From Candidatus Solibacter sp. (lineage in GTDB: Bacteria > Chloroflexota > Dormibacteria > DASZGP01), in the NCBI GenBank assembly GCA_035569605.1, contig DATMMS010000005.1, positions 355,262 through 419,261 on the forward strand: a stretch of 64,000 nt of DNA, given 5' to 3'. Shown piece after piece: positions 19,545 to 39,865 of this stretch. The position numbers and the translations under genes were made by a program. The notes beneath the pieces are model-generated. The model worked only from the letters and a program-made list of their open reading frames with translations. It did no database searches and was not told the origin of the DNA. Every line of letters begins with the position of its first letter. Within the stretch, counting starts at the first letter, position 1.

Positions 19545-19804
19545 GCGTGATGGCGGCCCGAACCGGCAAGACCACCCTGCACTGCCCCAACGACGACTGG
19601 GATTTCGATCCCCGATACACGGAGGGGGTATGCCCGATCTGCGGCTGGGGTCCGGGAAAGCGGCCCACCGCGGCCTGGCTGGCGCGGGTTGAGGCCCTGC
19701 CCTGGGACTACATCACGCTGGCGATCTTTGCTGTCGTGCTGCTCGTCGTGGGTGTGCTCGTCGGCATGGCCGCCAACGTGAACATCCTTCCCCAGGGCGC
19801 CTGA
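19541..19804 (+). CDS. Small zinc-ribbon membrane protein (hypothetical)
   Basis: 87 aa; CPNDDW...CPICGW Cys pairs then TM helix ITLAIFAVVLLVVGVLVGM; ATGA overlap with upstream gene. Confidence 0.5.
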   Translation: MSVMAARTGKTTLHCPNDDWDFDPRYTEGVCPICGWGPGKRPTAAWLARVEALPWDYITLAIFAVVLLVVGVLVGMAANVNILPQGA

Positions 19805-19866
19805 GGCTGCACCAGCTGTGATCGCCGCCGGCAACCTGCCGGCGGCTCAGTCGGAGGATCTTGGGG

Positions 19867-20427
19867 CTATCGGCGGGCTGTTCGCCAGGCCGAGTACGCT
19901 GTCGCGACGCCGGCCAGGCTGATCGCCGCCAGCAGGGATTCCACCGGCACCCCCGTGGTGAAGGGTGCCATGCCGATCGTCCAGGGGGCGCGATTGTGAG
20001 CCAGGACGGCGATATTGCTGGCGGTCACGAAGCCGACCAGCGAGGCGCCGCCCGCGGCCAGGATCGCAAGCCGCCGGACCCGGCCGGCGCCGGCGAGCGC
20101 CAGCGCTGCAGCCCCGATCAGCGTCAGGCCGAGTCCCAGCTCGGTCAGCTCGACAAGCCGGGGCAATATCGTCGGGAACCGGGAGGCCAGGTTCGCCATC
20201 ACGGCACCGTAGGGTCCTGGAGCGTGGGAGACGAAGCCCACAAAGCCGTTCACAAACGCGGCGTTCTGCAGCTTGGTCAAGCCTGAGAAGAGCCACTCCC
20301 AAGCCTGTACGGCGCTCAGAGTGGCGATGCCTACGTAAGGTCCCGCGGTCGCGAGCCCGGTACGGGCGGCTGTATGGACCCTGGCCGGAGCCGAGGTCCT
20401 GGTAGGGGAGACTGATGTAGCAGCCAT
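19867..20427 (-). CDS. Hypothetical polytopic membrane protein (possibly DoxX-like)
   Basis: 186 aa, several hydrophobic helices; family assignment weak. Confidence 0.45.
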   Translation of the reverse strand: MAATSVSPTRTSAPARVHTAARTGLATAGPYVGIATLSAVQAWEWLFSGLTKLQNAAFVNGFVGFVSHAPGPYGAVMANLASRFPTILPRLVELTELGLGLTLIGAAALALAGAGRVRRLAILAAGGASLVGFVTASNIAVLAHNRAPWTIGMAPFTTGVPVESLLAAISLAGVATAYSAWRTARR

Positions 20428-20654
20428 CTGGTCTGCCTCCTGTGCGGTTGTCCCGTACGAATCATCCGTACGGCGACTCCACTGGTGATAACTCCACGTT
20501 GATATACGGCATTCCGATGCGGCACCGGGCGCGCGATTGATCCGCGGCGCGCTTGGGGGACAGAGGGTTCAGAGGCCACTCTTCGCCTCAGACGTAGCGT
20601 CGTAAATTGTATCTTTTGCGACGTTTACCGAGAGGAAGAGAGTGGCGTCGGGGC

Positions 20655-21579
20655 CTATTTCGCCCGGCTGAAGTTCGCCGTGACCTTCGCGTCCAGCTGC
20701 GTTCCGAGGTCCTGGTACTGCTTTTGCAACGTGGCGTAGTCGAACTTCTCCAATGCGTCGATATCAATCTTGAGGGCCGCCTGGGCAGTCTCGATCGCGG
20801 ACAGATTCCGGTTCTGGACGCCGTCCACGACGCCCTTGATATGGGTCAGCTCCGACCTGAAAACGGCCAGGAACTCCTTCAGCTTGGACGGCGTGTCGGG
20901 CGCGGCCGTGGCTCCGGTGATCAGCTTGTCAAGGCTGGCGCTGGGAGCCGCATAGTCAGCCTCAGCGGTACTCACCTTTTGCGCGGTCAGGTCGGCGCTC
21001 AGAGTCTTGAGCTCGACCAGGGTGGTCATGAGATCGCTGATCAGGCCGATCTGCTGTTTGACCGATCCGATTACGCTTATCTCAGCGACAAGGCCATCGT
21101 GATAGGCGCCCAGCCGGCCATGCTCGCGATCCAGCATGCTCGCCGAGATGGCTGTGAACATTGATCGATCCTGTACCTTCCGGTCGGCCGTTGCGACGTC
21201 CCTGATCTCGGTTTCATCCGTGGACTTGAGCGAGTCGAGCTCCACGTTTGCCTGGTCCAGCGCCGTCTTCGCTCGGGCAGGGTCAAAGTTGGTCCCGCTA
21301 AGGTCACCCACGCCGCTGAAGACCGTGCGCAGCTTGGCTTCGAAGTCGACATGGCGCTGGTCGACGGTCGAGCGCACGGCGTTTGAGGCATCGATCCTGT
21401 CTTTGGCCGCGGCCCTGGAGGCGACGACATAACCCACCGCCACCCCGATCAAGACCACCACCGCCGCGACGACGATCAGGAGATTGCGCACGAGGTGGCC
21501 CGCTGCCGCTACGGGTGGCGGTGGCAGTGATTCCCATAATGCTGGCGTGGGCGTGGCCTGGACTGCTGGCTCGTCGATC
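20655..21579 (-). CDS. Hypothetical membrane-anchored protein with long helical ectodomain
   Basis: Start placed at ATG 21579 preceded by GAGAGGGGGA RBS-like purine run; N-terminal TM (LLIVVAAVVVLIGVAVGYVV); the ORF-track start 22112 is an Arg-rich extension overlapping the divergent gene. Confidence 0.6.
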
Positions 21580-21665
21580 ATTTCGTTGCGTTCCCCCTCT
21601 CGGTTACCCCGCAGTGGGGACCATGGTAGGCCACTTGTGCGCTGGCGTGCGCCTAACCTAGACGC

Positions 21666-22139
21666 ATGCGGGCGGTGAGTCTGCGGACGGCTGAGGTCCT
21701 GACCTGGATCGCGATCTGCCTGACCAGCTTCCTGGCGTTCCGGATCTTCGCGATCTACCTCACGCTGCTCAACCCGGCGACGTGCAACGACAGCTGTGAC
21801 CTGGGCCGCGACGCCATCCGCGTGTTCCTGGCGGTCTTCGTCGTCGGCTGGTTTCCCTGGCTGCTGATGCTCTGCATCTCCTACGCGCGGCGCCACGCCG
21901 AGCTGTGGTGGCTGCCGCACTGCGTGGTGATCGTCGGCGCCTATATCTTCGCCATGGCGTATGTGGCGGTCCTGTTCATGGGCTTCAGCGACGCCAATGG
22001 CCGCACGCCGTTCCTGGCGCTCTCGGCCGCCGCTAGCCTCGGGTTGGCCGGCCTGGTGCTGATCGCCGGCGTCGTGCTCGATCGCCATGTCCCCCCGGAC
22101 ACCACCGTCCACTTCTTCCAGGAGGACTCCGGAGAGTAG
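21666..22139 (+). CDS. Hypothetical membrane protein
   Basis: 157 aa, 4 predicted TM helices; divergent from previous gene. Confidence 0.5.
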   Translation: MRAVSLRTAEVLTWIAICLTSFLAFRIFAIYLTLLNPATCNDSCDLGRDAIRVFLAVFVVGWFPWLLMLCISYARRHAELWWLPHCVVIVGAYIFAMAYVAVLFMGFSDANGRTPFLALSAAASLGLAGLVLIAGVVLDRHVPPDTTVHFFQEDSGE

Positions 22140-22154
22140 CCGAAACGTCGCAAT

Positions 22155-23162
22155 ATGCGGCGTCGCGGTTTACACTGCCGTTCGGTGGTCTCTTCCTCTA
22201 CGCGTCTCCAAGACCAGGTGTCGGCGTTCCTCGAGCACTGCGAGATCGATCGCAACCTCTCGCCGCTGACTGTGCGCATGTACGCGCAGTACCTCGGCGC
22301 GTTCGGCGCATGGGCCGCCGCCGAAGGCGTCACCAGCGCCGAGCAGATCACCCCAGAGGTGGCCCGGCGCTACCGCGTCCACCTCAACCGATACGTGTCG
22401 CCGGTCACCCGTCGCAACCTCTCGCGCGGGACCCAGACCTCGTACCTGGTGGCGCTGAGGTCGCTGCTCCGCTTCCTGAGCCGCTCCGGAGAGGACACCA
22501 TGGCCGCCGATCGTGTCGAGCTTGGCAAGAGCGGCGGTCGCAGCCTCAAGTTTCTCGACTCACACCAGGTGGCGCGCCTGCTGGCGTCGGTCGACGCCAC
22601 CGACGAGCCTGGGATGCGCGATCGGGCCATCCTCGAGCTGCTGTTCTCGACGGGGCTGCGGGTCTCCGAGCTGGTCGGACTGGATCGCGAGCAGGTCAAC
22701 CTGGAGAGCCGCGAGTTCTCGGTCATGGGCAAAGGTCGCAAGGTCCGCGTCGTCTTCGTCAGCGACGAGGCGGCCGACGGGATCCGCTCCTACCTGTCGA
22801 TGCGAAAGGATCGGTTCAAGCCGCTCTTCATCCGCTACCGCGGCCACGCCGCCGAGCAGGAGACCCCCGGCGGGCGCGCCGCCATGGACGGCGAGGCCTG
22901 GCGTCTGAGCGCCCGGTCGGTGGAGCGCATGGTTGCCAAGTACGTGCGGCTGGCGGGGCTGGGCGTCAAGGCCACGCCGCACACGCTGCGCCACAGCTTC
23001 GCCACCGACCTGCTCTTCAACGGCGCCGACCTGCGTTCGGTCCAGGAGATGCTTGGGCACGCCAACCTCGCGACCACCCAGGTGTACACGCACGTCACCA
23101 ACCCGCAGCTGCGGGCCGTGCATCGCGACTTTCACAGCGGCAACCGCCGCCGTGGCGACTAG
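22155..23162 (+). CDS. Tyrosine site-specific recombinase, XerC/XerD type
   Basis: C-terminal catalytic block LRHSFATDLLFNGADLRSVQEMLGHANLATTQVYTHV; N-terminal SAM-like domain; true start may be in-frame GTG at 22185. Confidence 0.85.
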   Translation: MRRRGLHCRSVVSSSTRLQDQVSAFLEHCEIDRNLSPLTVRMYAQYLGAFGAWAAAEGVTSAEQITPEVARRYRVHLNRYVSPVTRRNLSRGTQTSYLVALRSLLRFLSRSGEDTMAADRVELGKSGGRSLKFLDSHQVARLLASVDATDEPGMRDRAILELLFSTGLRVSELVGLDREQVNLESREFSVMGKGRKVRVVFVSDEAADGIRSYLSMRKDRFKPLFIRYRGHAAEQETPGGRAAMDGEAWRLSARSVERMVAKYVRLAGLGVKATPHTLRHSFATDLLFNGADLRSVQEMLGHANLATTQVYTHVTNPQLRAVHRDFHSGNRRRGD

Positions 23163-23199
23163 ACCGAGTCCCTCGCCAGGGAGACCCCCTCCCCCGCTG

Positions 23200-23511
23200 T
23201 CAGCCTCTTATCTGGACCGCCGGCTGGACCTGTAGGCGCACCTTGCTGAAGCAGTCGTTGCAGTAGACAGGCCGCGATTCCCGCGGCTCAAACGGGACCT
23301 GTGTCGTGGTCCCGCACTCGGCGCAGATCACGTCATACATCCGTCGTGATCCCTGACGCTGAAGGCGTTTGGCGGATCGGCACTGCGGGCATCGCTGGGG
23401 CTGGTTCAGCAGGCCCTTTTCCTGGAAGAAACTCTGCTCACCCGCCGTCCATACGAAGTCGGCAGAGCAATCACGACACCTCAGCGTCACGTCCTCGAAT
23501 CCCATCGGCAC
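23200..23511 (-). CDS. Zinc-ribbon protein with four CxxC pairs (hypothetical)
   Basis: 103 aa; CRDC...CPQC...CAEC...CNDC. Confidence 0.6.
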   Translation of the reverse strand: MPMGFEDVTLRCRDCSADFVWTAGEQSFFQEKGLLNQPQRCPQCRSAKRLQRQGSRRMYDVICAECGTTTQVPFEPRESRPVYCNDCFSKVRLQVQPAVQIRG

Positions 23512-23604
23512 CTCCCAGTTCCATGGGTCTGCGGTCGAACCGCCCTACCATAACTCCGGCGTCATACCGGCTGCAAACAGCGGGCAAACGACGGGCAAAC
23601 CGCC

Positions 23605-23985
23605 TCAGCCGCTTTTACGAATGCCGTTATAGATAGTCTTGCCGCCCACCAGCAGCAGGTAAACCGCGAACACCTGGCGCAGCCGCTGCTGGTCGATGTG
23701 CACCGCCAGATAGGCGCCGGCCGCGGCGGTGACTGCCCCCAGCAGACCCATCCAGATCGTGGGCTGGATGTCGATATTGCCGCGGCGATAGTGCGACTGC
23801 GCTCCACTCAGCGCGGTGGGCAGGATAACCAGCAGGGACGTGCCCTGGGCGACCGATTGCTGCACTCCCAGGACCAGCACCATCGCCGGAACCATGATCA
23901 CGCCGCCGCCGATCCCAAGCGCTCCGGAAAGCATTCCTGAGACCAAACCGATGACCAGGGTCAGCGCCCCCTCACCGACGTTCAT
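23605..23985 (-). CDS. TSUP (TauE/SafE, DUF81) family membrane protein, C-terminal-half-like unit
   Basis: 126 aa, 4 TM; GxGGG motif SGALGIGGGVIMVP; start ATG overlaps stop of upstream half (ATGA). Confidence 0.7.
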   Translation of the reverse strand: MNVGEGALTLVIGLVSGMLSGALGIGGGVIMVPAMVLVLGVQQSVAQGTSLLVILPTALSGAQSHYRRGNIDIQPTIWMGLLGAVTAAAGAYLAVHIDQQRLRQVFAVYLLLVGGKTIYNGIRKSG

Positions 23986-24389
23986 GGCAGCAGCAGCCTG
24001 GTCGCCACGACGACGAGCAGCACGCCGAAGGCCAGCGTCAGCTGGCGGTCCGAGACGCGGTGGGCGATGACGGCGCCAAGCCGTGCGCCGACAACCCCTC
24101 CGATCGCCAGCAGCAAAGCGAGCTCAAACCGCACATTGTGGCCGCCCGCCAAGTAGTACGTGGCCACACCCACGATCGAGATCGGGATGATGGCGAGCAG
24201 CGAATTGGCGACCGCCCGCCTCTGGTTGAGGCCCAGCGCCCAGGTCAAACCTGGCACCAGCACCACTCCCCCACCGACGCCCAACAGGCCGCTCACGAAG
24301 CCGGCCACAGTGCCGACGCCAAGGGCCCGAGCTAAGGGCTTACCAGTAGCGCCAGGCACGGTTTCCGGGAGAGGTTCCAAACATCTCAC
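23982..24389 (-). CDS. TSUP (TauE/SafE, DUF81) family membrane protein, N-terminal-half-like unit
   Basis: 135 aa ORF; SGLLGVGGGVVLVPGL motif; start probably downstream of 24389 because the ORF overlaps the spoIID-like 3' end by 50 bp. Confidence 0.65.
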   Translation of the reverse strand: MRCLEPLPETVPGATGKPLARALGVGTVAGFVSGLLGVGGGVVLVPGLTWALGLNQRRAVANSLLAIIPISIVGVATYYLAGGHNVRFELALLLAIGGVVGARLGAVIAHRVSDRQLTLAFGVLLVVVATRLLLP

Positions 24390-26226
24390 CGTAGACCACG
24401 AAGTCAGCCGGTGAGCCGGCGTTGATTGCCCGGATGAACGCGCCCGGGGTCACCGTGCAGACGCGGGACGAACCGACCATGCGCACGCTGTTGAGGCGAT
24501 CTGAGGCGTCGCGGTCGGAGAGGTCGAAGGATCTCAGGGTGCCACACTGCGCCGCGCTGTAGGTCCCGCCCAGGTAGCCCTGGATCTCGCTGAGCGTGTG
24601 CGCCGGCGTGTACCAGGTGTGGAGTGGGCTGACGTCGTAGTTGTCGACCACCCCGGCCAGGTAGGGTGTGTTGCTGCCGCCCCACTCGTCCACGGCGGAC
24701 TGGGTGTGGCCGCCGTCGCTGGACGAGAACACTGCATCGATGATCTGGCCGCCGTAGAAGACCCCCTGCAAATGCGTCGTGGCGATGGCGGCGTTCTGCG
24801 ACTGGGTCTCGCGGCCGACTCCGCCGTAGACCTGGGAGGCGGTGGTGTCGTCGACGTCATACAGCCCTCCGCCGAGGTGGTACAGGGCGTAGGTGCGAGC
24901 GGCCACCATCTGGGCGGCGAGCGCGTTGAGGGGCCAGCTGGAAGGCACCTCGGCGATGCCTTGGAGGTAGCTCTCGAGCTCGACGTGGTTGATCACCTTG
25001 AAGCCGCTGCTGCCGTCGACCCAGGCCTCGCCGCGGTACTCCCGTCCACTGCCGCTGACCTGGAAGTACAGGCCGGGCACCAGCCGCAGCGTCGAGCTGT
25101 GGGCGCTGCCGCCTGCCCAGCTGGCGCTGATGCTGCCGTCGCCGTTGCGCGAGAACGTGGCCGTCTGGTCCTGCGCCAGGTGGCCCAGGACGTTGCCGGA
25201 GACGTCCTGCACCGTCGCCGGAGCGGACCTCGGGGTGATGGCGCCGCCGGCGCCCGTCAGGTAGACGCGGACGGTTTGGTCTGGGACCGAGCCGATGCTC
25301 ACCCCGCTGTAGAAGCTGTGAATGATCTGCTGCCACCCGATACCCGCCTGGGCCATGCCCAGCGCGCCGTACTGGGCCAGGCCCACGCCGTGCCCCCAGC
25401 CGTGCCCGCAGAAGCTGATCTTGCCCGCCGGCGCGGCAGGGCACACCGAGCCGTAGGCCAGCCCCGATCCCTTCTGACCGGCGGCTGCCGCTGCCGCCGC
25501 GGCGGCGGCGAGCGCCTGCTCCAACTGCGTCTCGGCTCGCTGGGTGCCACGAAGCGCGGCCAGCTGAGCGCGCTGCTGGGCCTCGATTTGGGATTCGATC
25601 GCGGCCTGGTTCTGGACCTGTCCCGATGCTGCAGCGGCTCTTGCCGCGAGCTCGGCCAGGAGCGGGTCGAGCTCGGCCTTGAGCCGCGCGGTCTCGTCAC
25701 GGTCGCGACTCAGCGCGTCGCGCTCCTCACGTAACCGGACCGCCTGGTCGTAGTTGTCGCGGGTCACGTGGGCGATGTAGATGAGGCGGTCAAGGAAGTC
25801 CGAGAAGCTGTTGGCCTCGAACAGGAAGACGATGGCGTCCGCCGGACCGGTCTTGTAGAGGCTGCGGCTCTGGGTCCGGAAAAGGTTGATATGAGCGTCG
25901 TGCTGCCTCTGGATCTGCTGGCCCCGGGCGTCGAGAGCCGCGATCTGGCGGCTGAGCTGATCTGCTCGGGCGAGCTGACTCTGATAGTCCGCCTGCTTGG
26001 CATTGAAGTCGGCGCGGAGCTGGTCCAGCATCGCCTGAGCCGACTGCTGCTGGCCGGCCAGCTGGTTGAGCGCCGCCCTCTGGCTCTGCTCCTGCGCCTT
26101 GAGCGCAGCCAGCTGATCTGGGGTCGGGTCAGCCAGGGCCGAGGTCGCCGGCATCGCGCCCACCATCAGGCAGACGGACAAAAACGTAGGCAGAAATGTG
26201 CGAAGACGCATGGAGGCTGAACTCAT
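24340..26226 (-). CDS. SpoIID/LytB-domain protein with N-terminal signal peptide and coiled-coil region
   Basis: 628 aa; signal peptide, Gln/Ala-rich coiled coil, poly-Ala run, C-terminal SpoIID-like blocks (MVAARTYALY...VYGG...SSSDGGHTQS). Confidence 0.8.
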   Translation of the reverse strand: MSSASMRLRTFLPTFLSVCLMVGAMPATSALADPTPDQLAALKAQEQSQRAALNQLAGQQQSAQAMLDQLRADFNAKQADYQSQLARADQLSRQIAALDARGQQIQRQHDAHINLFRTQSRSLYKTGPADAIVFLFEANSFSDFLDRLIYIAHVTRDNYDQAVRLREERDALSRDRDETARLKAELDPLLAELAARAAAASGQVQNQAAIESQIEAQQRAQLAALRGTQRAETQLEQALAAAAAAAAAAGQKGSGLAYGSVCPAAPAGKISFCGHGWGHGVGLAQYGALGMAQAGIGWQQIIHSFYSGVSIGSVPDQTVRVYLTGAGGAITPRSAPATVQDVSGNVLGHLAQDQTATFSRNGDGSISASWAGGSAHSSTLRLVPGLYFQVSGSGREYRGEAWVDGSSGFKVINHVELESYLQGIAEVPSSWPLNALAAQMVAARTYALYHLGGGLYDVDDTTASQVYGGVGRETQSQNAAIATTHLQGVFYGGQIIDAVFSSSDGGHTQSAVDEWGGSNTPYLAGVVDNYDVSPLHTWYTPAHTLSEIQGYLGGTYSAAQCGTLRSFDLSDRDASDRLNSVRMVGSSRVCTVTPGAFIRAINAGSPADFVVYGEMFGTSPGNRAWRYW

Positions 26227-26269
26227 TCTTTAGGCCGCCACCGGCCCTGTCAACCTCGTTGGCGGAGAT

Positions 26270-27232
26270 TTAGCCTGCCTGCGAGAGCTCCTTAATCACG
26301 TTCACAACGCTCTCGGACAGTCCGTGGAGGTCATATCCCCCCTCCAGGCACCAGGCGCTCCGGCCGTCGCAGAGATCAGCGGCCCAGGCGGTGATGCGAG
26401 CCGCCAGGATGCCGTAATCAACGGATTCCAGCTCCATCTGGGCCAGCGGATCGCTTCGGTGGGCATCGAAGCCCGCGCTCACGAGAAGCAGTTGGGGAGC
26501 GTATTCGCGGAGCGCGGGCGCGAAGACCTGATCGAACACCTCGACGTATTCAGATCGCCCCCCGCCCGCAGTCATTGGCGCGTTGAGGGTGAACCCTTCG
26601 CCTTCACCCTGGCCGCGCTCTGACGCGGCACCGGTGCCGGGATAGAGCGGGTACTCGTGGCAGGACATGTAGAGCACGTCGGACCGCTCGTAGAAGATGT
26701 CCTGGGTGCCGTTGCCGTGATGGACGTCGAAGTCCACGATCGCCACCCGTTCCAGTCCAAAGTCAAGCGCCGCCTGGGCTGCGATCGCGATGTTGTTGAA
26801 AAGGCAGAAGCCCATCGCCTTCGACCTGGTGGCGTGGTGGCCCGGGGGCCTGGTGAGGCTGAAGGCGGAGCCTTGCTCGCCCGCCAGGACCGACTGGACC
26901 GCCGCCACCGCCCCGCCCGCGGACGCCACCGCGGCGGCGACAGAGTTCGGCCCCAGCCAGGTGTCAGGGTCTAGCCACTCGCCCGTGCCCCGGGCATCGG
27001 CCGAAGCGCCGGCGTCGAAGATGGCGGCCACGTGGTGCGGGTCGTGCACGGATTCGAGCATCTCCCGCGTCGCCGGCTCGGGCCGCCGCCTCGGCAGCTC
27101 GCGGAGATCGGGGTCAGCCGCCAGCGCCTCATCGATGGCAGCCAGTCGCTCGGGCCGCTCGGGATGACCGGGCGCCTGGTGGAGGTCGCAGTCCGGGTGG
27201 CTGAAGAGAAGCGGCGCCCGCCCCGGAGTCAT
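26270..27232 (-). CDS. Histone deacetylase-superfamily hydrolase (AcuC/acetylpolyamine amidohydrolase-like)
   Basis: FDVHHGNGTQ...MSCHEYPLYPGTG blocks; ATG 27232 overlaps stop of upstream gene (ATGA); ORF-track start 27355 is an extension. Confidence 0.8.
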   Translation of the reverse strand: MTPGRAPLLFSHPDCDLHQAPGHPERPERLAAIDEALAADPDLRELPRRRPEPATREMLESVHDPHHVAAIFDAGASADARGTGEWLDPDTWLGPNSVAAAVASAGGAVAAVQSVLAGEQGSAFSLTRPPGHHATRSKAMGFCLFNNIAIAAQAALDFGLERVAIVDFDVHHGNGTQDIFYERSDVLYMSCHEYPLYPGTGAASERGQGEGEGFTLNAPMTAGGGRSEYVEVFDQVFAPALREYAPQLLLVSAGFDAHRSDPLAQMELESVDYGILAARITAWAADLCDGRSAWCLEGGYDLHGLSESVVNVIKELSQAG

Positions 27233-28446
27233 GTCACGTCGAGGTCGAGGGCCAGCTCCCGCAGGAATGACTCCACATCGGTAACGATGCCTACGGTCTG
27301 GAAGGAACCGCGGTCCGACAGCTTGGTCACCACCGATGGCTCCATGTCGACACATACCGTACGGACCGTTGCCGGCAGCAGGTTGCCGGTGGCGATGCTA
27401 TGCAGCATCGTGCCGACCATCAGGGCCAGCCTGATGTCCCGCTGGCGGATGGCCTGGCGCATCCTCTTCTGAGCCACGATCACATCGGTGATGACGTCGG
27501 GCAGAGGCCCGTCGTCCCGGATCGAGCCGGCCAGGACGATCTCGATCCCCGCCTTGGTCGCCTCGAACATGACGCCGCTTTTGACGACACCGCTCTCCAC
27601 GGCGGCCGCGATCGACCCCGCTCGGCGGATCTCGTTGATGGCTCGGATGTGGTGCTCATGGCCGTGCTCCAGGCCCAGGCCCGAATCGAGGCTGATGCCC
27701 AGCGAGGTTCCGAACAGCGACGACTCGATGTCGTGGGCGGCCAGCGCGTTGCCGGCGAACAGCACCTGCACGTACCCAGCGCGGATCAGAGCTGACAGAT
27801 AGCGTCCGGCGCCGGTGTGGATGACTGCGGGTCCCCCGACAAAGAGGATGGAGCCGCCGTCGGCGCGGATCTGGCGCATGTCGGCGGCGATCTCCCTGAT
27901 CACCAGCTTCTTGGGCTTCTCGGCCGACACCTGCGACTGCATGAACCCGAAGATCTCGCGGTCTCGGGATCGCTCCAGCGGCTGCACCCTAATTCCGAGA
28001 TACCCGGTCACCACCATCTGGCCAACCCGGGCCTCGTCGACGGGGAGGCAGAACGCTCGCTCGCCGTCGACCGCGATGCCGCAGTCCATCTCGATGTTCT
28101 CGACCTCCAGCCAGCGTTCGCCGACGCGCACCGAGGTCGGCTGGTTGCTGGTCGAGTAAAACTCGCCTGGGAAGACCCCATCCTGCGTCACCGCCTGCAG
28201 CTGGGCGCCGACGTGGTCCAGGGGCGCGGCGCCGTACTGCTGGATGGCGGTGAGGATCTCGCCCAGCAGGGTCTCGTCGCTCGCTTCCACCGACAGCCTC
28301 ACGTAGGACTTCTCGTCCTTGTGCTTGCCGACCCGGAACTCCTCGACGTCGAAGTTTCCGCCCATGTCCATGATCGTGTCCCAGACCTTGGGCAGAGCCA
28401 GGCTGTCGATGATGTGGCCCTCGAGGGCCACCAATGCCCGTTCCAT
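27229..28446 (-). CDS. Conserved hypothetical protein, possibly LOR/SDH-like domain family (TIGR00300-like); assignment tentative
   Basis: 405 aa from ATG 28446; Rossmann-like Gly-rich segment LFVGGPAVIHTGAGRYLSALIRAG; family call from recalled pattern only. Confidence 0.5.
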   Translation of the reverse strand: MERALVALEGHIIDSLALPKVWDTIMDMGGNFDVEEFRVGKHKDEKSYVRLSVEASDETLLGEILTAIQQYGAAPLDHVGAQLQAVTQDGVFPGEFYSTSNQPTSVRVGERWLEVENIEMDCGIAVDGERAFCLPVDEARVGQMVVTGYLGIRVQPLERSRDREIFGFMQSQVSAEKPKKLVIREIAADMRQIRADGGSILFVGGPAVIHTGAGRYLSALIRAGYVQVLFAGNALAAHDIESSLFGTSLGISLDSGLGLEHGHEHHIRAINEIRRAGSIAAAVESGVVKSGVMFEATKAGIEIVLAGSIRDDGPLPDVITDVIVAQKRMRQAIRQRDIRLALMVGTMLHSIATGNLLPATVRTVCVDMEPSVVTKLSDRGSFQTVGIVTDVESFLRELALDLDVT

Positions 28447-28456
28447 CTCGCCGATT

Positions 28457-29266
28457 CTAGAGCGCGGCTTGGATCTGATCGCGCAGCCGGCGCGCCGCAT
28501 CAGCAGCCGCGTGCTGGTGGTCCGGGCCACGGCTGGCGTGCATGATCGACCGCGAGGAGCTGATCAAGAAGGCACCCTCTCTCCCCTCCCCCGCGGCCGC
28601 CCCGACGGCGCCGACCAGGTCGCCCTGCTGGGCGCCGACCCCAGGGACCAGGATCGGCAGGCTCGGGCAAACGGCCCTGATCCGCTCGATGTCCGGCGGG
28701 AAGGTGGCGCCGGCGACCAACCCGACGTTGTCGTTGGTGTTCCACTGGTTGGCGAGCTCCGCCACCCGGAGGAAGAGCGGTGTGCCGTCCACCGGCAGCT
28801 CCTGCAGCTCGCTCGACCCGGCATTCGACGTGCGGCAGAGGACAAAGACGCCGCGCTCGGGGCGGCGCAGGAAGGGCTCCAGGCTGTCGCGCCCCATGTA
28901 CGGGCTGACCGTCGCCGCCCCGGCTCCGTAGGTCTCGTATGCCGCCTCCGCGTATCGCTCGGCGGTGTTGCCGATGTCACCTCGTTTGACGTCGAGGATC
29001 ACCGGGATCTCCTCTGGGACCGAGGCGATAACCGCCTGCAGCACCTCCATCCCGTGCGGGCCCATGATCTCGTAGAAGGCGGAGTTGGGTTTGTACGCGG
29101 CTGCAAACTCGGAGGTCGCCTCCACCACCCCGGTGACGAAGCGAAGCACCTCGTCGGGGTCGACTTCGAACTCCGCCGGGAGCGCCTCCAGGTCAGGGTC
29201 GAGCCCGACGCACACATTCGAGCCGCGATCGCGGATGGATGCGCGGAGAGATTCGTTGAAGGTCAA
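28457..29266 (-). CDS. pyrF: Orotidine 5'-phosphate decarboxylase, type 2
   Basis: 269 aa; VCVGLDPD and ILDVKRGDIGNT active-site blocks. Confidence 0.85.
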   Translation of the reverse strand: MTFNESLRASIRDRGSNVCVGLDPDLEALPAEFEVDPDEVLRFVTGVVEATSEFAAAYKPNSAFYEIMGPHGMEVLQAVIASVPEEIPVILDVKRGDIGNTAERYAEAAYETYGAGAATVSPYMGRDSLEPFLRRPERGVFVLCRTSNAGSSELQELPVDGTPLFLRVAELANQWNTNDNVGLVAGATFPPDIERIRAVCPSLPILVPGVGAQQGDLVGAVGAAAGEGREGAFLISSSRSIMHASRGPDHQHAAADAARRLRDQIQAAL

Positions 29267-29301
29267 ATCTTCAGCCGTGCACCGTCATCGCGGTGCACGC
29301 C

Positions 29302-29529
29302 TCAAACCTCGTGGGTCTCGAGGACTTTGTAGCCGGTCGACTCCAGCTGCGCCACCCGCTTCTCCGGATAGCCGCGCATGCCTGGAAGCGGGAATGCGCC
29401 GGATTCGTCCAGCGGCGCCTCGAAGAGGATCTTCACCTCCTCGAGGAAATCGACGTCGGGGCCGCTGATCCAGCCGGTATCGGTGACCTCCACCGTGGGC
29501 CCGCCCTTGGTCAGTGTCCAGACTTTCAT
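29302..29529 (-). CDS. Hypothetical small protein
   Basis: 75 aa acidic ORF between repeat-protein gene and pyrF; no family recognised. Confidence 0.45.
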   Translation of the reverse strand: MKVWTLTKGGPTVEVTDTGWISGPDVDFLEEVKILFEAPLDESGAFPLPGMRGYPEKRVAQLESTGYKVLETHEV

Positions 29530-29541
29530 CCCGGCGCAAGT

Positions 29542-29955
29542 TTACCGGGGCGTCGTATCTCCTGTCTGGCGCAGCATCCGGCTGCTGGCTCGATCGGCGG
29601 CGTCGAGCTCCAACTCGACCCTCGCCCGGAGCCGCTCGATGATCGTCAGCTCCACCAACTCGCCATCTCGTCGAACCTGGTTGGGCGCGTTCAGCCGGTC
29701 CAACAGCTGGTGGCCTTCGAGCTCTTCTTCTGGCGTCATGCTTCTGGGTGTCGCCCGCGGAGTCGAAACCGCGCCCGGAGGCGCTGTTGAAGCCTGCTCG
29801 CGGTCGCTGGCCGCGGTGGCTCGATGATCGGCGGCCAGCCTGCGAGCAGTGCTTGCCTGAGCACGGTCGTCGGCGGCGATCTCACGATTAGAGCTCGCCT
29901 CGGCGCGGTCATCCGCGGCCTGACCTCGCCCAGTGGCAGACCGCGCCAGGTCCAT
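29542..29955 (-). CDS. Hypothetical low-complexity repeat / coiled-coil protein (possibly 5'-extended to about 30146 through a frameshift)
   Basis: 137 aa; degenerate repeats AADDRAEAS/AADDRAQAS/AADHRATAAS then helical C-terminus; upstream overlapping ORF 29736-30146 carries similar repeats in another frame. Confidence 0.45.
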   Translation of the reverse strand: MDLARSATGRGQAADDRAEASSNREIAADDRAQASTARRLAADHRATAASDREQASTAPPGAVSTPRATPRSMTPEEELEGHQLLDRLNAPNQVRRDGELVELTIIERLRARVELELDAADRASSRMLRQTGDTTPR

Positions 29956-30215
29956 GGCCTCGCGACGGTCCCTGACGAGTCGACCTCGTCCGCCAGGTCG
30001 TCGTGCGCGTCAGCCTGCTTGTCGCGAATGTCCGCAGCCGTGTCGCGCGCCGCCGCCGCCCGGTCGCGCTGTTGCGCAACCAGGTTGTGTAGCCGTGTCC
30101 GCGCCTTGGGGCTGCCATTCTTGGCCCTCCCGCGCGGACTCACCACAAAAGTCTAGGTCGGACGGCGGTCCGCAACCATGACTTGAGAAGGGTTGCCCGA
30201 AACATGAGCAGAATT

Positions 30216-30293
30216 TGGTCGGCGAGACAGGATTTGAACCTGCGACCCCCAGTCCCCCAGACTGGTGCGCTACCGAGCTGCGCCACTCGCCGG
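30216..30293 (-). tRNA. tRNA-Pro (anticodon GGG)
   Basis: Cloverleaf folds by hand: acceptor CGGCGAG/CTCGCCG, anticodon stem CCAGT/ACTGG, loop CTGGGGG, T-loop TTCAAAT, encoded CCA. Confidence 0.9.
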
Positions 30294-31362: not shown

Positions 31363-32705
<1,343 letters not shown>

Positions 32706-32731
32706 CCTCGAAGGCTAAGGGATGATGTACC

Positions 32732-33457
32732 GTGACGGCGATGCAAAACGTCGGCAACAGCTTCAGCCTTCCATTTCGCAGTCCCGGCTACTTCGGAACC
32801 CTGGTGTTGATGGGGCTGATCGGCCTGATCCCCATCGTCGGCTGGATCAACTCGCTGGGATGGATGCTCTCCATCGTCGACAACTACCGCTCCGGACGTA
32901 CGGACCTGCCTCCGGCTGGCTTTCAGTACATCGGCCGGGGAGCGACGCTGTTCCTGGTGGTGCTGGTCTACGGCCTCATCCTCAGCGCCATCTTCGCGGT
33001 GCCGTTCTTCCTCATTCTTGCGGGCTCGATCGCCAGCGCCAGCACCTCCAGCGCGACACCGGGCTCGACGGCCTTCTTCGGAGGCGGCTTCGCCACCTAC
33101 GTCGGGCTGATCCAGCTGCTCTCGCTGGCGATCAGTCTCTTCTACCCCGCCGTCATCGTGGCCACCGAGCGCGGCGGAGCCGGTGGCGGCCTCAACCCGG
33201 TCAACGTCTTCGGCATCGCCGCCGCGAACTGGAAGAACACGTTCATCGCCGGGCTGTTGTTCTTCGCCGCCAGCTTCATCGGCGGGCTTGGCATCTACGC
33301 CTGCTGCATCGGCATCCTCTTCACGGCGCCCTACAGCACCGCCGTCATGGCTGGAGTGGTTCGGTACTACGAGGCCGAGTTCGAGATACCGCCGGTGGCG
33401 CCACCGGCGAGCGTGCCCCCGCCGCCTCCGCCGCCCGCGCCCTACCCGCCTAGCTGA
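32732..33457 (+). CDS. Hypothetical polytopic membrane protein with Pro-rich C-terminus (DUF4013-like?)
   Basis: 241 aa, multiple TM helices, C-terminal PPPPPPPAPYPP. Confidence 0.55.
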   Translation: MTAMQNVGNSFSLPFRSPGYFGTLVLMGLIGLIPIVGWINSLGWMLSIVDNYRSGRTDLPPAGFQYIGRGATLFLVVLVYGLILSAIFAVPFFLILAGSIASASTSSATPGSTAFFGGGFATYVGLIQLLSLAISLFYPAVIVATERGGAGGGLNPVNVFGIAAANWKNTFIAGLLFFAASFIGGLGIYACCIGILFTAPYSTAVMAGVVRYYEAEFEIPPVAPPASVPPPPPPPAPYPPS

Positions 33458-33905
33458 TCGGCTCGGGACCGAACTCGGGCGGCTCCTCCTGCCGCAGGAC
33501 GAAGGCGTTGACGTCGACCTGCTTGCCGGCGTCGATCGCCATGATCAGGTAGACGTATTCCGGCCAGGCGTGCTCGGCGTCGTACTGGGAGGGCCGGGCG
33601 GGGTGGTCGGGATGGGTGTGCCAGAACCCCACCACCTCGATCCCGCGCTCGCGCGCGTCCCTCTCGGCGCGCAGGATGTCCTTCGGATCCATGATGTAGC
33701 GGTCCCGCGCGCTGTGCTCCCGATCGTCCTTCTCCGCGGGAACATTGGCGTTCTCGCCAGTCTCACGGAGGTTGGTGGCCGCTCGCACCTCGACCACCTC
33801 GACCTCATCGCCGAAGCTTCCAAGGAAGATGCCGCAGCCCTCGTAGGGATAGGCGCTCTCCCCCATCTCGGTCATCTGCCGGCGGAGCTCGACCGAGATC
33901 CTCAT
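33450..33905 (-). CDS. JAMM/MPN+ metalloprotease (Mov34 family; Mec-like)
   Basis: 151 aa; E...HTHPDHPARPSQYD JAMM zinc motif; immediately downstream of cysteine synthase gene. Confidence 0.75.
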   Translation of the reverse strand: MRISVELRRQMTEMGESAYPYEGCGIFLGSFGDEVEVVEVRAATNLRETGENANVPAEKDDREHSARDRYIMDPKDILRAERDARERGIEVVGFWHTHPDHPARPSQYDAEHAWPEYVYLIMAIDAGKQVDVNAFVLRQEEPPEFGPEPIS

Positions 33906-33915
33906 TGCGCGGTGG

Positions 33916-34869
33916 TCAAGTTCGGTTGACGTAGAGACCGCTGGACAGGTAGCGGTCGCCGCCGTCGGGGAAGATCATCACCACCACCCCACTCTCCAGG
34001 CGCGCAGCCACCTGGGCCGCGCCCCAGAGCGCGGCGCCGCAGCTGTGCCCCACCAGGATGCCCTCGCTGCGGGCCAGCCTCCGGGCCAGGTCGTAGGCGT
34101 CCTCGGTCTCGACGTCGATGAGCTGGTCGTGCACCGTCTCGTCGTAGATCCCCGGCCGGATCGCAGTGGGGATGTGCTTGAGCCCCTCCAGGCCGTGCCA
34201 TCCGCTCGACGGCTGTACCGCCACCACCTGGATCTCGGGGTTGTACTCGTGCAGCCGCCGCCCGGTGCCGACCAGGGTGCCGCTGGTGCCGAGACCGGCC
34301 ACGAAATGAGTGATTCTGCCGCCGGTCTGCTCGATGATCTCGGGCGCTGTGGTGTGGTAGTGGGCCAGCGGGTTGTTGGGATTGTTGTACTGGTCGGGCA
34401 TGTAGTACCGCTCGGGGTCGGCGGCGAGCATCTCGTGGGCTCGAACGATGGCCCCGTCCGATCCCTCGGCGGGGTCGGAGTACACGATCTCCGCGCCGAA
34501 TGCGAGAACCGTCTCGCTGCGCTCCTTGCTCACGTTCCCCGGCATCACAAGGACCAACCTGTAGCCCTTGGCGGCGGCCACCAGCGCATAGCCGATGCCT
34601 GTGTTCCCCGATGTCGAGTCCAGGATCACCTTGTCGCGGGTCAGCTCACCGCTGCGCTCCGCCTCCTCGATCATCCGCTTGGCGGGTCTGTCCTTCACCG
34701 AGCCACCGGGGTTGAACCACTCCGCCTTGGCCCAGAACTCGACTCCGGGGTGGCTCTTCTCGAACATGTGGACCTGGATCAGCGGGGTGTTGCCGACCCG
34801 GTCGAGAATCGTCCTCGCCACGCCGTCGTCGCCCGAAGGGGTGATGGGTCCGGGCGCCGGCTGACTCAT
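33916..34869 (-). CDS. Cysteine synthase (PLP-dependent; CysM/CysK family)
   Basis: GNTPLIQ and SGNTGIGYALVAAAKGYRLVLVMP PLP-binding blocks. Confidence 0.85.
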   Translation of the reverse strand: MSQPAPGPITPSGDDGVARTILDRVGNTPLIQVHMFEKSHPGVEFWAKAEWFNPGGSVKDRPAKRMIEEAERSGELTRDKVILDSTSGNTGIGYALVAAAKGYRLVLVMPGNVSKERSETVLAFGAEIVYSDPAEGSDGAIVRAHEMLAADPERYYMPDQYNNPNNPLAHYHTTAPEIIEQTGGRITHFVAGLGTSGTLVGTGRRLHEYNPEIQVVAVQPSSGWHGLEGLKHIPTAIRPGIYDETVHDQLIDVETEDAYDLARRLARSEGILVGHSCGAALWGAAQVAARLESGVVVMIFPDGGDRYLSSGLYVNRT

Positions 34870-34911
34870 TTCGAGGCCAAGTTTATCCGTGGCCCTGTCG
34901 CTCGCCCGCCG

Positions 34912-35160
34912 TCAGTGGACGACGTACCGAACCAGGATGATTGTCACGCCGCCGATCAGACCGAGTCCGATGCCATACCCCACAAAACTGCGAGCCAGCA
35001 CGCTGTACCGCCGGGGCAGGATGTTCATGATCGCCTTGCCCGCCAGGAAGCCAATCCCCACCGCGGCTACCGAAGGGTGGTGGTTGAGCAGGCCGTAGAT
35101 GGCCACCAGCGTGAATGCGGCCGTCTCGAAGAGCTGCAGCGCCGTGTACGGGCCGATCAC
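34912..35160 (-). CDS. Hypothetical small membrane protein
   Basis: 82 aa, 2-3 TM segments. Confidence 0.4.
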   Translation of the reverse strand: MIGPYTALQLFETAAFTLVAIYGLLNHHPSVAAVGIGFLAGKAIMNILPRRYSVLARSFVGYGIGLGLIGGVTIILVRYVVH

Positions 35161-35172
35161 CGCTACGGCCGC

Positions 35173-36252
35173 CTAGCTTTCGCGGCGGAAACCGTAATCC
35201 AGCAGGCTTGCCGCGTCGGTGAAGATCAGCGGGTCGTCCATCTCCACCGTGACCAGGGTATGGCTGCCCCGATGGGCGCCGCCGACGAAGACCTGGCCGG
35301 CCTTGTCGGTGAGCCCGGTCTTGAAGCCGATGGCGCCAGGGTAGGTCCAGAGCAGCTTGTCGAGATTGGTCGGGAAGAAGGCCTTGTGGTCGGAGCTGTA
35401 AGCGAGCGTCTCCTCCTTGGTGGTGACCACGCCGGCAAGCACCGGATAGTGCTCATAGAGGTAGGCGGCAGTCAGCGCCAGGTCGTGGGCGCTGCTGTAC
35501 TGACCGGCGTCGTCCAGCCCCGAGGGATTGACGAATTGGGTGTCGGTCAGGCCCAGCGCGACGGCCTTGCTGTTCATGGCGCGGACAAAATCGGCCCGAC
35601 CGTGCCCGACCGTGGTGGCAGCAAGCGTCTCGGCCGCGTCGTTGCCCGAGTCCAGTAGCAGCCCGTAGAGGAGCTCGCGCACCGTCAGTGTTTCGCCGGC
35701 GCTGAGCCCCATGACATTGGGCTCCACGTTCACCGCTGTATCGGGCACCACCAGCCGGTCATCGGGGCTGGCGTGGTCAAGGGCTACCATCGCGGTCGTC
35801 AGCTTGGTGGTGCTGGCGATCGCCATCCGCTGGTGCGGGTTGCGGCTGAAGAGGACGTGGCGATTGTCGATATCGACCAGGATGGCGGCCTTGGCGCGGA
35901 CAGCCGGCGCGCCCGCCGCCGGGTTGGCCTGTGCCCAGCGGTAGTCCCAGGAGTACGGCGGCGAGAGCAGCGCCTGGGCCGCCTCGTGGCGGTCGCTGAC
36001 GGCATAGACCGGGACCGCCGGCTCGACCACGTGGGCGGCGGCGACGCTGGTGGCAGCGGTGGCAGCAGCTCGTCCGCCGATCGTGACGTGAGTTGCCATC
36101 CAGATCGCGCCAGCCAGGAGCGCCAGGGAGGCGAACAGCACCAGGACGTCCCGGCGCCGAGCGCCTTTCCGGCGCCGGGGACCGTAGGAGCGACTTGCTG
36201 GCGTGAATGTGACGCGTGCCGCGGATCTGCGCTGGTACAAGTCGGCCCCCAT
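35173..36252 (-). CDS. D-alanyl-D-alanine carboxypeptidase (serine-type, peptidase S11)
   Basis: Active-site SxxK in ASTTKLTTAMVALDH; N-terminal membrane anchor; ATG 36252. Confidence 0.8.
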   Translation of the reverse strand: MGADLYQRRSAARVTFTPASRSYGPRRRKGARRRDVLVLFASLALLAGAIWMATHVTIGGRAAATAATSVAAAHVVEPAVPVYAVSDRHEAAQALLSPPYSWDYRWAQANPAAGAPAVRAKAAILVDIDNRHVLFSRNPHQRMAIASTTKLTTAMVALDHASPDDRLVVPDTAVNVEPNVMGLSAGETLTVRELLYGLLLDSGNDAAETLAATTVGHGRADFVRAMNSKAVALGLTDTQFVNPSGLDDAGQYSSAHDLALTAAYLYEHYPVLAGVVTTKEETLAYSSDHKAFFPTNLDKLLWTYPGAIGFKTGLTDKAGQVFVGGAHRGSHTLVTVEMDDPLIFTDAASLLDYGFRRES

Positions 36253-36354
36253 GAAACCAGAGCCCCGTCGGGCTGTCAATCGCGCCCTCGGGCGCGCCGA
36301 CATTAGAGTAGCGGATGGGGTTTACTATGCTTCGACCATCGCTAGGAGGGAATC

Positions 36355-36780
36355 ATGGCTCAAGGAGATCTGATCGCCAAGCTTGGCGCCTGCAAGCTGT
36401 TTGAGGACCTCTCCAAATCGGACCTCAAGAAGGTCGCGGAGCGCATGGCCGAAGATCATTTCCCCGCCAAGACGACGATCCTCAAGGAAGGCGAGGAGGG
36501 CATGGGATTCTTCTTTGTCGTCCTCGATGGCAGCGCCACGGTGGTCCAGCACGGCAAAGAGGTGGCGGTGCTCAAGCAGGGCGACTTCTTCGGCGAAGTC
36601 ACCTCCCTCAACGGCGGGCCGCGCACGGCCTCGGTCAGGACCAACAGCGCGCTCTGGGTGATGCGACTGACCGACAGCAACTTCCGCCCCTTCCTCGAGG
36701 AGTTCCCCAAGGTAACCTTCCGCATCCTCGAGCGCGTCCTGATGCGTTTCCAGGCGCTGGCTACAAACGCGGGATCGTAA
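36355..36780 (+). CDS. Stand-alone cyclic nucleotide-binding domain protein
   Basis: 141 aa; cNMP-binding core FFFVVLDGSATV...QGDFFGEVTSLNGGPRTASVRT; no DNA-binding or enzymatic domain attached. Confidence 0.75.
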   Translation: MAQGDLIAKLGACKLFEDLSKSDLKKVAERMAEDHFPAKTTILKEGEEGMGFFFVVLDGSATVVQHGKEVAVLKQGDFFGEVTSLNGGPRTASVRTNSALWVMRLTDSNFRPFLEEFPKVTFRILERVLMRFQALATNAGS

Positions 36781-36805
36781 GCCCGATCGACCGGACCCGC
36801 CGCGG

Positions 36806-37000
36806 TTGGCGATGAACGAGCAGGACGAAATCGAGCTGGAGGCGTTGATGCGGCAGCGCCGCACCAGCGATTCGCGGCTCAACCGGGCACTGGGTGAGCT
36901 GCTGGGTAGCCACCACGGCGCCGACGAGACGCTGGCGGCGATCGACGAGGTGGAGGGCATTCTGCGCCAGCTCGCGTCCCTGGTCGGAAGGCTTTCCTGA
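36806..37000 (+). CDS. Hypothetical small protein
   Basis: 64-aa ORF, helical; weak support. Confidence 0.3.
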   Translation: MAMNEQDEIELEALMRQRRTSDSRLNRALGELLGSHHGADETLAAIDEVEGILRQLASLVGRLS

Positions 37001-37034
37001 GCCAGCTCACGCGGCTCGCTGTCGGGCTCGCCTC

Positions 37035-37268
37035 CTAGAGGACGCCCATCTTCACAAAGGCGATCGTGGTGATGATCCCCGCCACCAGCAGCACCGCCCC
37101 GACCAGCCTGTGGGAGGCCGGCTCGTCGCCATTGAGGATCGGGAACCAGTCTCCCCTCCCCTCGTAGAAGTCGGTCATGTCATTGGTGGCGCCGAAGATG
37201 TTGAACAGCAGCATCGCGCCGACCAGGCCGAGGAGCAAGGGCCCCAGCAGGAAGAACCACGCTTGCAT
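37035..37268 (-). CDS. Hypothetical small membrane protein
   Basis: 77 aa, two TM helices. Confidence 0.4.
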   Translation of the reverse strand: MQAWFFLLGPLLLGLVGAMLLFNIFGATNDMTDFYEGRGDWFPILNGDEPASHRLVGAVLLVAGIITTIAFVKMGVL

Positions 37269-37329
37269 GCTCTCAGCCTAGGCCGGATGGGCGGCTATGG
37301 CCAGCAGGCCACCGGATATCCTCGGACAG

Positions 37330-37965: not shown

Positions 37966-37984
37966 AACGTTCCGGGTAGAGCCC

Positions 37985-39820: not shown

Positions 39821-39865
39821 CCCCAAGCATATGGCCTCGCGTAACGCCGGCCGGTATCTCCCGTC

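Follow-up and report, generated by a model that had tools for sequence, protein, structure and literature searches.

A probable housekeeping operon of Dormibacterota couples pyrF to a predicted ornithine cyclodeaminase and, in one clade, to an HDAC-family deacetylase

What holds a pyrimidine biosynthesis gene, a conserved 405-amino-acid (aa) protein and a histone deacetylase (HDAC)-family enzyme together in one tightly packed cluster? The question is raised by a 64,000-nucleotide stretch of DNA, here called the window, from a genome labelled Candidatus Solibacter sp. and placed by GTDB in Chloroflexota, Dormibacteria (assembly GCA_035569605.1, contig DATMMS010000005.1, positions 355,262 to 419,261 of the forward strand). 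According to the list of open reading frames (ORFs) and our reading of the sequence, the minus strand of the window carries, in the 5' to 3' order, a 137-aa ORF, a 75-aa ORF (orf75), pyrF, the 405-aa gene and a 320-aa HDAC-family gene. An initial annotation, made from the sequence without database searches, had proposed that the last two genes serve an amine modification pathway, with the 405-aa protein resembling lysine-oxoglutarate reductase/saccharopine dehydrogenase (LOR/SDH). We consider it probable, with fair confidence, that the cluster is instead a lineage-conserved, translationally coupled housekeeping operon of Dormibacterota, built from known families. The features that carry this reading are listed below.

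28457-29266, minus strand: pyrF, type-2 orotidine-5'-phosphate decarboxylase with a TTG start (TIGR02127, PF00215)
27229-28446, minus strand: 405-aa predicted ornithine cyclodeaminase of the TIGR00300 family (TIGR00300, PF04455, PF21571, PF21570)
27229-27232, minus strand: ATGA start/stop overlap of the cyclodeaminase and HDAC genes (sequence reading)
26270-27232, minus strand: 320-aa predicted zinc-dependent HDAC-family deacetylase, class II or 'cluster 1' (PF00850, motifs)

The tight minus-strand packing with gaps of 10-35 bp and the ATGA overlap of the last two genes at 27229-27232, both described in the initial annotation, were found again. The spacers measure 12 bp between the 137-aa ORF and orf75, 35 bp between orf75 and pyrF, and 10 bp between pyrF and the 405-aa gene, while the ATG of the HDAC gene (27232-27230) shares bases with the TGA stop of the 405-aa gene (27231-27229). 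The start of the 405-aa protein is an ATG that matches the N-termini of its homologues, which are 401-413 aa long, and the HDAC homologues of about 320 aa can be aligned from the inner ATG; these lengths and alignments ruled out the longer starts, which would give a 433-aa cyclodeaminase and a 361-aa HDAC-family protein. The GC content at third codon positions (GC3) of the four conserved minus-strand genes is 0.83-0.88. Because of these values and the family matches of the minus-strand genes, long plus-strand ORFs (for example 27817-28545 and 28319-29332) were rejected as antisense artefacts of a high-GC genome. The packing exceeds chance, since the same junctions recur in other species, a recurrence explained by shared ancestry.

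Profile searches placed the 405-aa protein in TIGR00300 at the equivalog level, with 517.8 bits against a cut-off of 410.8 and residues 2-401 covered; the current NCBIfam name of this family is 'ornithine cyclodeaminase, nickel-pincer nucleotide-dependent'. Its three domains, Saccharop_dh_N (PF04455, E 4.6e-32), ArgZ-like_C_1st (PF21571, E 4.1e-27) and the Rossmann domain ArgZ-like_C_2nd (PF21570, E 6e-100), are contiguous over residues 5-398. Comparison with known structures revealed matches to the C-terminal half of AgrE (6lrh, E 1.6e-105, query residues 2-403) and to 3c2q (E 8e-101). Neither an AlaDh_PNT nor a Sacchrp_dh domain was found in the protein at E <= 0.01, leaving only the 'conserved region' PF04455, and this domain content refutes an identity as bifunctional LOR/SDH. 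A bifunctional ArgZ/AgrE enzyme was also rejected, as NF052231 scored 414.6 bits against a cut-off of 1025 and aligned over profile positions 286-691 only. The family guess of the initial annotation (TIGR00300/PF04455, 'LOR/SDH-like') was therefore correct when the profile search was run, and so was its expectation of an arginine-derived amine, here ornithine, but the protein is not a lysine-oxoglutarate reductase/saccharopine dehydrogenase. Among the relatives, AgrE converts arginine to proline via ornithine (PMC8262935), and in Methanococcus maripaludis, fitness in the absence of proline depends on the homologue (GapMind 2026). By analogy with these enzymes, the 405-aa protein most likely converts L-ornithine to L-proline and ammonia, and its role is most likely either the supply of proline from ornithine, as in methanogens, or a catabolic ornithine drain, as with AgrE. 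For an ornithine cyclodeaminase, the reported cofactor is a nickel-pincer adenine dinucleotide that is bound non-covalently (Desguin 2025, cited after PMC13524815, which leaves the family unnamed); we tie this cofactor to TIGR00300 because of the current NCBI family name.

The 320-aa protein matched PF00850 with an E value of 5.7e-91 (305 bits). The PDB entries that match it best are catalytic domains of HDAC6, Burkholderia 5ji5 and HdaH-type enzymes (5g0x, for instance), with acetylpolyamine amidohydrolases (9gkz and 6phr, E 1e-40 to 1e-44) matching more weakly. For this protein and the cyclodeaminase alike, the matches to solved structures leave no ambiguity. Alignment of 14 sequences revealed that H132/H133, the zinc-site residues D169/H171/D256 and Y300 are invariant, together with the motifs RPPGHH (residues 128-133) and EGGY (297-300), and that the gatekeeper segment following the third zinc ligand is D-P-L-A (261-264), with Leu present in 13 of the 14 sequences. 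The foot-pocket motifs RPPxHH and EGGY define the acetyl-specific 'cluster 1' of 'robust deacetylases', and the gatekeeper is Leu in catalytic domain 2 (CD2) of HDAC6, Glu (in PEG) in HDAC10 and a PIS motif in bacterial polyamine deacetylases (ApaH) (Graf et al. 2024, PMC11532494). Judged by its sequence, the protein is an intact class-II-type zinc enzyme, and the combination of RPPGHH, EGGY and the Leu gatekeeper predicts an active, acetyl-specific amidohydrolase of the acetyl-lysine type. The polyamine idea of the initial annotation, here taken as a deacetylase of the HDAC10 or ApaH type, is disfavoured by the DPLA gatekeeper, which has neither the Glu of PEG nor the PIS motif. The label AcuC, which homologues carry in JGI records, was also set aside, because the best matches are class II enzymes (HDAC6, HdaH) and not class I/AcuC; the RPP motif is stated for cluster 1, and AcuC falls in cluster 2c (Graf et al. 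2024, PMC11532494). No NCBIfam model matched the HDAC gene, and no acuA, acuB or acsA gene lies nearby.

The identity of pyrF is straightforward, with 236.9 bits to TIGR02127 against a cut-off of 110.6 (equivalog level) and an E value of 2.3e-28 to PF00215. Orotidine monophosphate decarboxylase catalyses the last step of uridine monophosphate synthesis. To follow the cluster across lineages, we scanned one genome per species and obtained 80 loci with cyclodeaminase relatives of 55-89% identity. Neighbours were tallied by tblastn with the window proteins; this replaced a gene caller based on length and GC frame, which gave noisy neighbour clusters and picked antisense ORFs in loci of 65-75% GC. 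pyrF lies directly upstream on the same strand in 51 of the 76 assessable species loci, which are essentially all the high-GC Dormibacterota-type loci, and in none of the sampled loci from Ktedonobacteria, other Chloroflexota, Planctomycetota or Bacillota. Of 56 loci, 35 show an overlap of the two genes by 4 nucleotides (nt), and the median gap is -4. The link to pyrF, which the initial annotation had called unexpected, is hence the most conserved feature of the cluster, phylum-wide and mostly in the form of a 4-nt overlap.

The HDAC gene has a narrower distribution. Of the 75 assessable species loci, 9 have it after the cyclodeaminase, as do the metagenome contigs L004-L006 (L numbers denote the contigs and loci of the comparison), and in a neighbour-joining tree of the cyclodeaminase, drawn without support values, all HDAC-bearing loci fall into one deep clade that is sister to a large clade with pyrF only. 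Within the HDAC-bearing clade, the [A/G]TGA overlap between the cyclodeaminase and HDAC genes is kept in 10 of 11 species loci. The three genes stay together through two flank arrangements: one with der-gpsA-tRNA-Pro-orf75 upstream and SpoIID-TauE downstream, the other with a two-component system upstream and SH3 (called in L006 only) and YjbQ genes downstream, followed by an M50 peptidase gene in L041 and L074. The identities of the cyclodeaminase and HDAC proteins to those of the window co-vary (Spearman 0.95), which fits vertical co-inheritance. In the sister clade, the gene after the cyclodeaminase varies, for example an SDR gene in L007 and TauE elsewhere; SDR as a general alternative partner was rejected, as it was found in 0 of 75 species loci. 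The pair named in the initial annotation is accordingly conserved, with its overlap kept in 10 of 11 cases, but within one Dormibacterota clade and with a single origin. Outside Dormibacterota, the closest HDAC homologues (50-55% identity) adjoin NAD kinase, AlaDh_PNT dehydrogenase or TPR proteins. In L090 (6001-8156), from an unrelated lineage, a 52%-identical HDAC homologue overlaps a 370-aa AlaDh_PNT-family dehydrogenase by 4 nt, another tight pairing of this deacetylase subfamily with an amino-acid or amine dehydrogenase-type enzyme.

The favoured reading, a housekeeping operon of known families, can be put as a sequence of steps. pyrF and the cyclodeaminase would form the ancestral, phylum-wide Dormibacterota core, and the deacetylase would have been added once, downstream of the cyclodeaminase, with the overlap kept since. 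The genes would be co-expressed through inheritance as a unit, with no need for a shared substrate chain. The cyclodeaminase would work by a redox-neutral hydride shuttle, in which a hydride is taken from the C-alpha of ornithine, the delta-amine cyclises on the resulting imine, ammonia leaves and the hydride is returned to yield proline; the hydride carrier, as reported for the family, would be the non-covalently bound nickel-pincer adenine dinucleotide. The deacetylase, for its part, would remove acetyl groups from lysine-type substrates.

Several observations weigh against parts of this reading. The cyclodeaminase/HDAC overlap is kept down to 58% and 46% identity although both flanks have been rearranged, a retention that exceeds usual passive synteny and could reflect selection for co-expression of functionally linked enzymes. 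The tree behind the single addition of the deacetylase carries no support values. As to the cofactor, no larB, larC or larE gene was found among the Pfam-scanned window genes, the Pfam labels of the identical contig L001 (window 17229-38446) or the 10 frequent neighbour clusters; the LarC-like motif GxSGDM, a weak test, was absent from 93 related-locus sequences (1.5 Mb), and every match to SGGxDS in the same sequences was NadE. Since no lar gene was seen in these genes and loci, the predicted nickel-pincer dependence here comes from the family annotation only. The absence itself says little, because cofactor genes need not be linked to the enzyme.

Two other readings stay alive because the overlap persists at 46-58% identity. 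In one of them, which we regard as unlikely, the HDAC-fold enzyme would deacetylate N-delta-acetylornithine, or N-alpha-acetylornithine in place of ArgE/ArgJ, and the ornithine would pass to the coupled cyclodeaminase to become proline. The stop/start overlap in 10 of 11 species, the cohesion of the three genes while their flanks change and the co-divergence of the two proteins are what such a two-step route would lead one to expect; the annotation of bacterial pathways has a recognised gap where N-acetylornithine deacetylases are missing (GapMind 2026), and on chemical grounds N-delta-acetylornithine resembles acetyl-lysine, being one carbon shorter. The association, however, arose once and is missing in about 80% of the Dormibacterota-type loci and from every other phylum sampled, the nearest HDAC homologues stand in unrelated contexts, the motifs indicate an ordinary acetyl-lysine-type site, and there are no arg genes within the 64-kb window. 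To our knowledge, moreover, no HDAC-family enzyme acts on N-alpha-acetyl amino acids. A more elaborate form, to which we give a low probability, makes the clade's HDAC-fold enzyme a dedicated small-molecule deacetylase (for N-delta- or N-alpha-acetylornithine, for example) that feeds a nickel-pincer-dependent cyclodeaminase, with the coupling to pyrF then perhaps tying pyrimidine synthesis to the ornithine/arginine branch point. If true, it would mean that acetylornithine is turned into proline by an undescribed route and that the HDAC family acts on a new class of substrates.

The other surviving reading, in which a lysine deacetylase strips off inhibitory acetyl groups and so regulates the cyclodeaminase and/or PyrF, or metabolic enzymes more broadly, also appears improbable to us. 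It agrees with the cluster-1 'robust deacetylase' signature, the HDAC6-CD2-like Leu gatekeeper and the translational coupling to the cyclodeaminase, and AcuC/AcsA-type regulation offers a precedent (PMC13121692). Yet no acetyltransferase gene lies nearby, nothing points to the cyclodeaminase as the target, and the sister clade has the same pyrF-cyclodeaminase pair without a deacetylase. The original proposal, in which an acetylpolyamine amidohydrolase and an LOR/SDH-like amine dehydrogenase form a polyamine-modifying pathway, is largely refuted and very improbable: the name of PF04455, 'LOR/SDH bifunctional enzyme conserved region', and the acetylpolyamine amidohydrolases among the weaker PDB matches (9gkz, 6phr) speak for it, but the 405-aa protein reaches the ornithine cyclodeaminase equivalog level without any AlaDh_PNT or Sacchrp_dh domain, the gatekeeper of the deacetylase is Leu and not the Glu of PEG or the PIS motif, and HDAC6 and HdaH are its better matches. 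More broadly, the idea of pairing the two enzymes in an amine pathway keeps the conserved, coupled pair in its favour but gains weak support, given the single clade, the single origin and the unrelated neighbours of the nearest HDAC homologues elsewhere. The arrangement provides no evidence of a new pathway, and it neither demonstrates nor rules out a shared 'amine modification' pathway.

The limits of the proposed operon and the elements upstream of the core genes involve the following further features.

30216-30292, minus strand: tRNA-Pro(GGG) (ARAGORN; Rfam RF00005, 61.6 bits)
29542-29955, minus strand: 137-aa low-complexity D/R/A-rich ORF, doubtful as a gene, in a genome-specific stretch of about 670 bp
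29302-29529, minus strand: orf75, a small conserved 75-aa protein with no assigned function (subclade-restricted conservation)
29270-29305, minus strand: perfect 9-bp GC-rich hairpin in the orf75-pyrF spacer (inverted repeat and RNA fold)
26225-26253, minus strand: sigma-70-like site TTGACA-17-AAGAAT in the 43-bp HDAC-SpoIID spacer (consensus scan)

The tRNA-Pro(GGG) gene separates der-gpsA from the cluster and likely marks the upstream limit of the transcription unit. It also follows gpsA in L004 (8819-8895), L005 (8817-8893), L010 (6191-6267), L011 (1518-1594), L012 (1240-1316) and L015 (904-978). At the other end, the sigma-70-like site has 10 of 12 consensus matches, with 1 site found against 0.7 expected in shuffled sequences, which is weak evidence; it may be a separate, predicted promoter for the next gene, SpoIID, and the HDAC gene would then be the last of the unit. 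Because of the tRNA-Pro upstream and this site in the HDAC/SpoIID spacer, the unit is likely (orf75)-pyrF-cyclodeaminase-HDAC. The terminator scan gave matches inside genes only, and the Rfam scan found tRNA only. A tRNA-Pro just upstream of an operon with a proline-forming cyclodeaminase, in a position kept in the HDAC-bearing clade, was noted as a side observation; it is probably synteny only.

Copies of orf75 with 72-85% identity occupy the same position in L004, L005 and L010-L012, and within the subclade the gene always stands directly before pyrF. Its GC3 is 0.84, four representative clusters match it among 1.84 billion proteins, and no Pfam or NCBIfam family does. A match of orf75 to a 5172-aa repeat protein (P0242; 13 stretches, 38% identity overall) was discarded, as it looks compositional. 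The hairpin at 29270-29305 (-25.3 kcal/mol, z = -4.7 by RNA fold) shares bases with the stop codon of orf75, shortly before pyrF begins; comparable hairpins of different sequence occur at the same place in L005 and L011, and none in L004, L010 or L012. From its position and predicted fold, it may be a partial terminator or a processing site.

The 'repeat protein' of the initial annotation does exist as an ORF at 29542-29955, but its status as a gene is doubtful. Its GC3 of 0.73 lies below the 0.83-0.91 of its neighbours, it has no Pfam or NCBIfam match, its tblastn matches are the identical contigs L001-L003 only, and the closest relatives, L004 and L005, lack the stretch of about 670 bp in which it lies. 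No DNA-level tandem repeat was found in the ORF or in the insert 29542-30215. A second ORF (29736-30146) overlaps it in another frame, and both of these D/R/A-rich ORFs share a 'DRxxA' flavour; they could be one frameshifted gene, or noncoding. The stretch just downstream of the tRNA-Pro varies in length: it measures about 670 bp here and about 2.6 kb in L010, and is nearly lacking in L004 and L005.

The 405-aa protein is 100% identical to one on a 421-kb contig of a metagenome-assembled genome, and nearly all of its relatives carry Dormibacterota labels, which identifies the organism. The window as a whole is an ordinary chromosomal region. Its genes include ymdB, spoVS, mutS, mutL, an aminotransferase, hflX, lexA, a fumarase/aspartase-type lyase, a Liv-type ABC transporter, xerC/D, a split TauE, SpoIID, the cluster itself, tRNA-Pro, gpsA, der, cysteine synthase and bipA; the content of 17229-24340 and 32700-40165 was taken from Pfam labels of the identical contig L001, and the other genes were Pfam-scanned. 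The TauE/SafE-type exporter is encoded by two half-size genes with a 4-nt overlap (23605-23985 and 23982-24389, minus strand). The same split occurs in L004 (14231-14889) and L007 (12424-13097); its conservation in both Dormibacterota clades rules out a sequencing frameshift. Genes with sporulation names (48-878 and 24340-26226) are represented by ymdB, spoVS and a 628-aa SpoIID-domain protein with an N-terminal coiled coil.

Two side observations concern the wider set of loci. In most sister-clade loci, a gene for glutamine-dependent NAD synthetase (NadE, 580-650 aa) stands divergently upstream of pyrF-cyclodeaminase, as in L007 (4206-5996) and in about 38 further loci that belong to the pyrF-only clade, L019 (near 8201) and L025 (near 8144) among them. 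The dinucleotide that NadE consumes, nicotinate adenine dinucleotide, also serves as the precursor of nickel-pincer cofactors; the position of the NadE gene may be coincidental synteny. In addition, several records of metagenome-assembled genomes with Dormibacterota-type sequence and synteny are filed under Candidatus Solibacter, Sulfotelmatobacter, Nitrosopolaris, Nitrosotalea and Eisenbacteria (P0001, L026, L031, L043, L067), and these discordant labels suggest that records in public assemblies are mis-binned or mislabelled.

Both enzymes belong to known families, and the function of the cyclodeaminase family has since been published. The analysis clears up an annotation, in that the 'LOR/SDH-like conserved hypothetical' or 'TIGR00300 family protein' of most records corresponds to a stand-alone ornithine cyclodeaminase, from a family recently tied to a nickel-pincer cofactor. 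The cyclodeaminase gene seems to belong to the vertically inherited core of Dormibacterota, an uncultured phylum of soil bacteria. If these bacteria lack proBAC, it would be their proline route, and a requirement for nickel and Lar genes would be implied, which is relevant to cultivation attempts. For the short bacterial deacetylase subfamily, a fixed partner provides a concrete substrate hypothesis. That pyrF is coupled to the cyclodeaminase across the phylum, and that a deacetylase joins them as a partner in one clade, may be undescribed; these are modest comparative-genomic regularities, small and so far unexplained.

We found no description of an HDAC-family gene coupled translationally to an ornithine cyclodeaminase, and each of the two enzymes has known counterparts. 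The deacetylase shares its catalytic residues and motifs with class IIb HDACs and 'cluster 1' HdaH enzymes (HDAC6 CD2, P. aeruginosa HdaH 5g0x, Alcaligenes/Bordetella FB188 HDAH 1zz0 and Burkholderia 5ji5), and its Leu gatekeeper is the same as that of HDAC6 CD2; at 320 aa it is short, without the C-terminal extension of about 30 aa present in its nearest Acidobacteriota and Dehalococcoidia homologues. The 405-aa protein has the same three-domain architecture as the C-terminal domain of AgrE/ArgZ (Anabaena Alr4995, 6lrf/6lrh; Synechocystis Sll1336, 6juy) and belongs to the same family as the archaeal stand-alone homologue M. maripaludis Q6LXX7 and 3c2q, with long invariant blocks in common, including G-H-x-H-H. 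Unlike AgrE, it stands alone, without the N-terminal arginine dihydrolase half, and its gene lies in a bacterial pyrF operon, whereas the known relatives are found in arginine-catabolic or archaeal contexts. The mu-crystallin-type ornithine cyclodeaminase of Pseudomonas putida and Agrobacterium carries out the same predicted reaction by a hydride shuttle (PMC3497308), but it is of an unrelated fold and family and uses NAD+, in contrast to the nickel-pincer adenine dinucleotide reported by Desguin 2025 (cited after PMC13524815) and tied to TIGR00300 through the NCBI family name.

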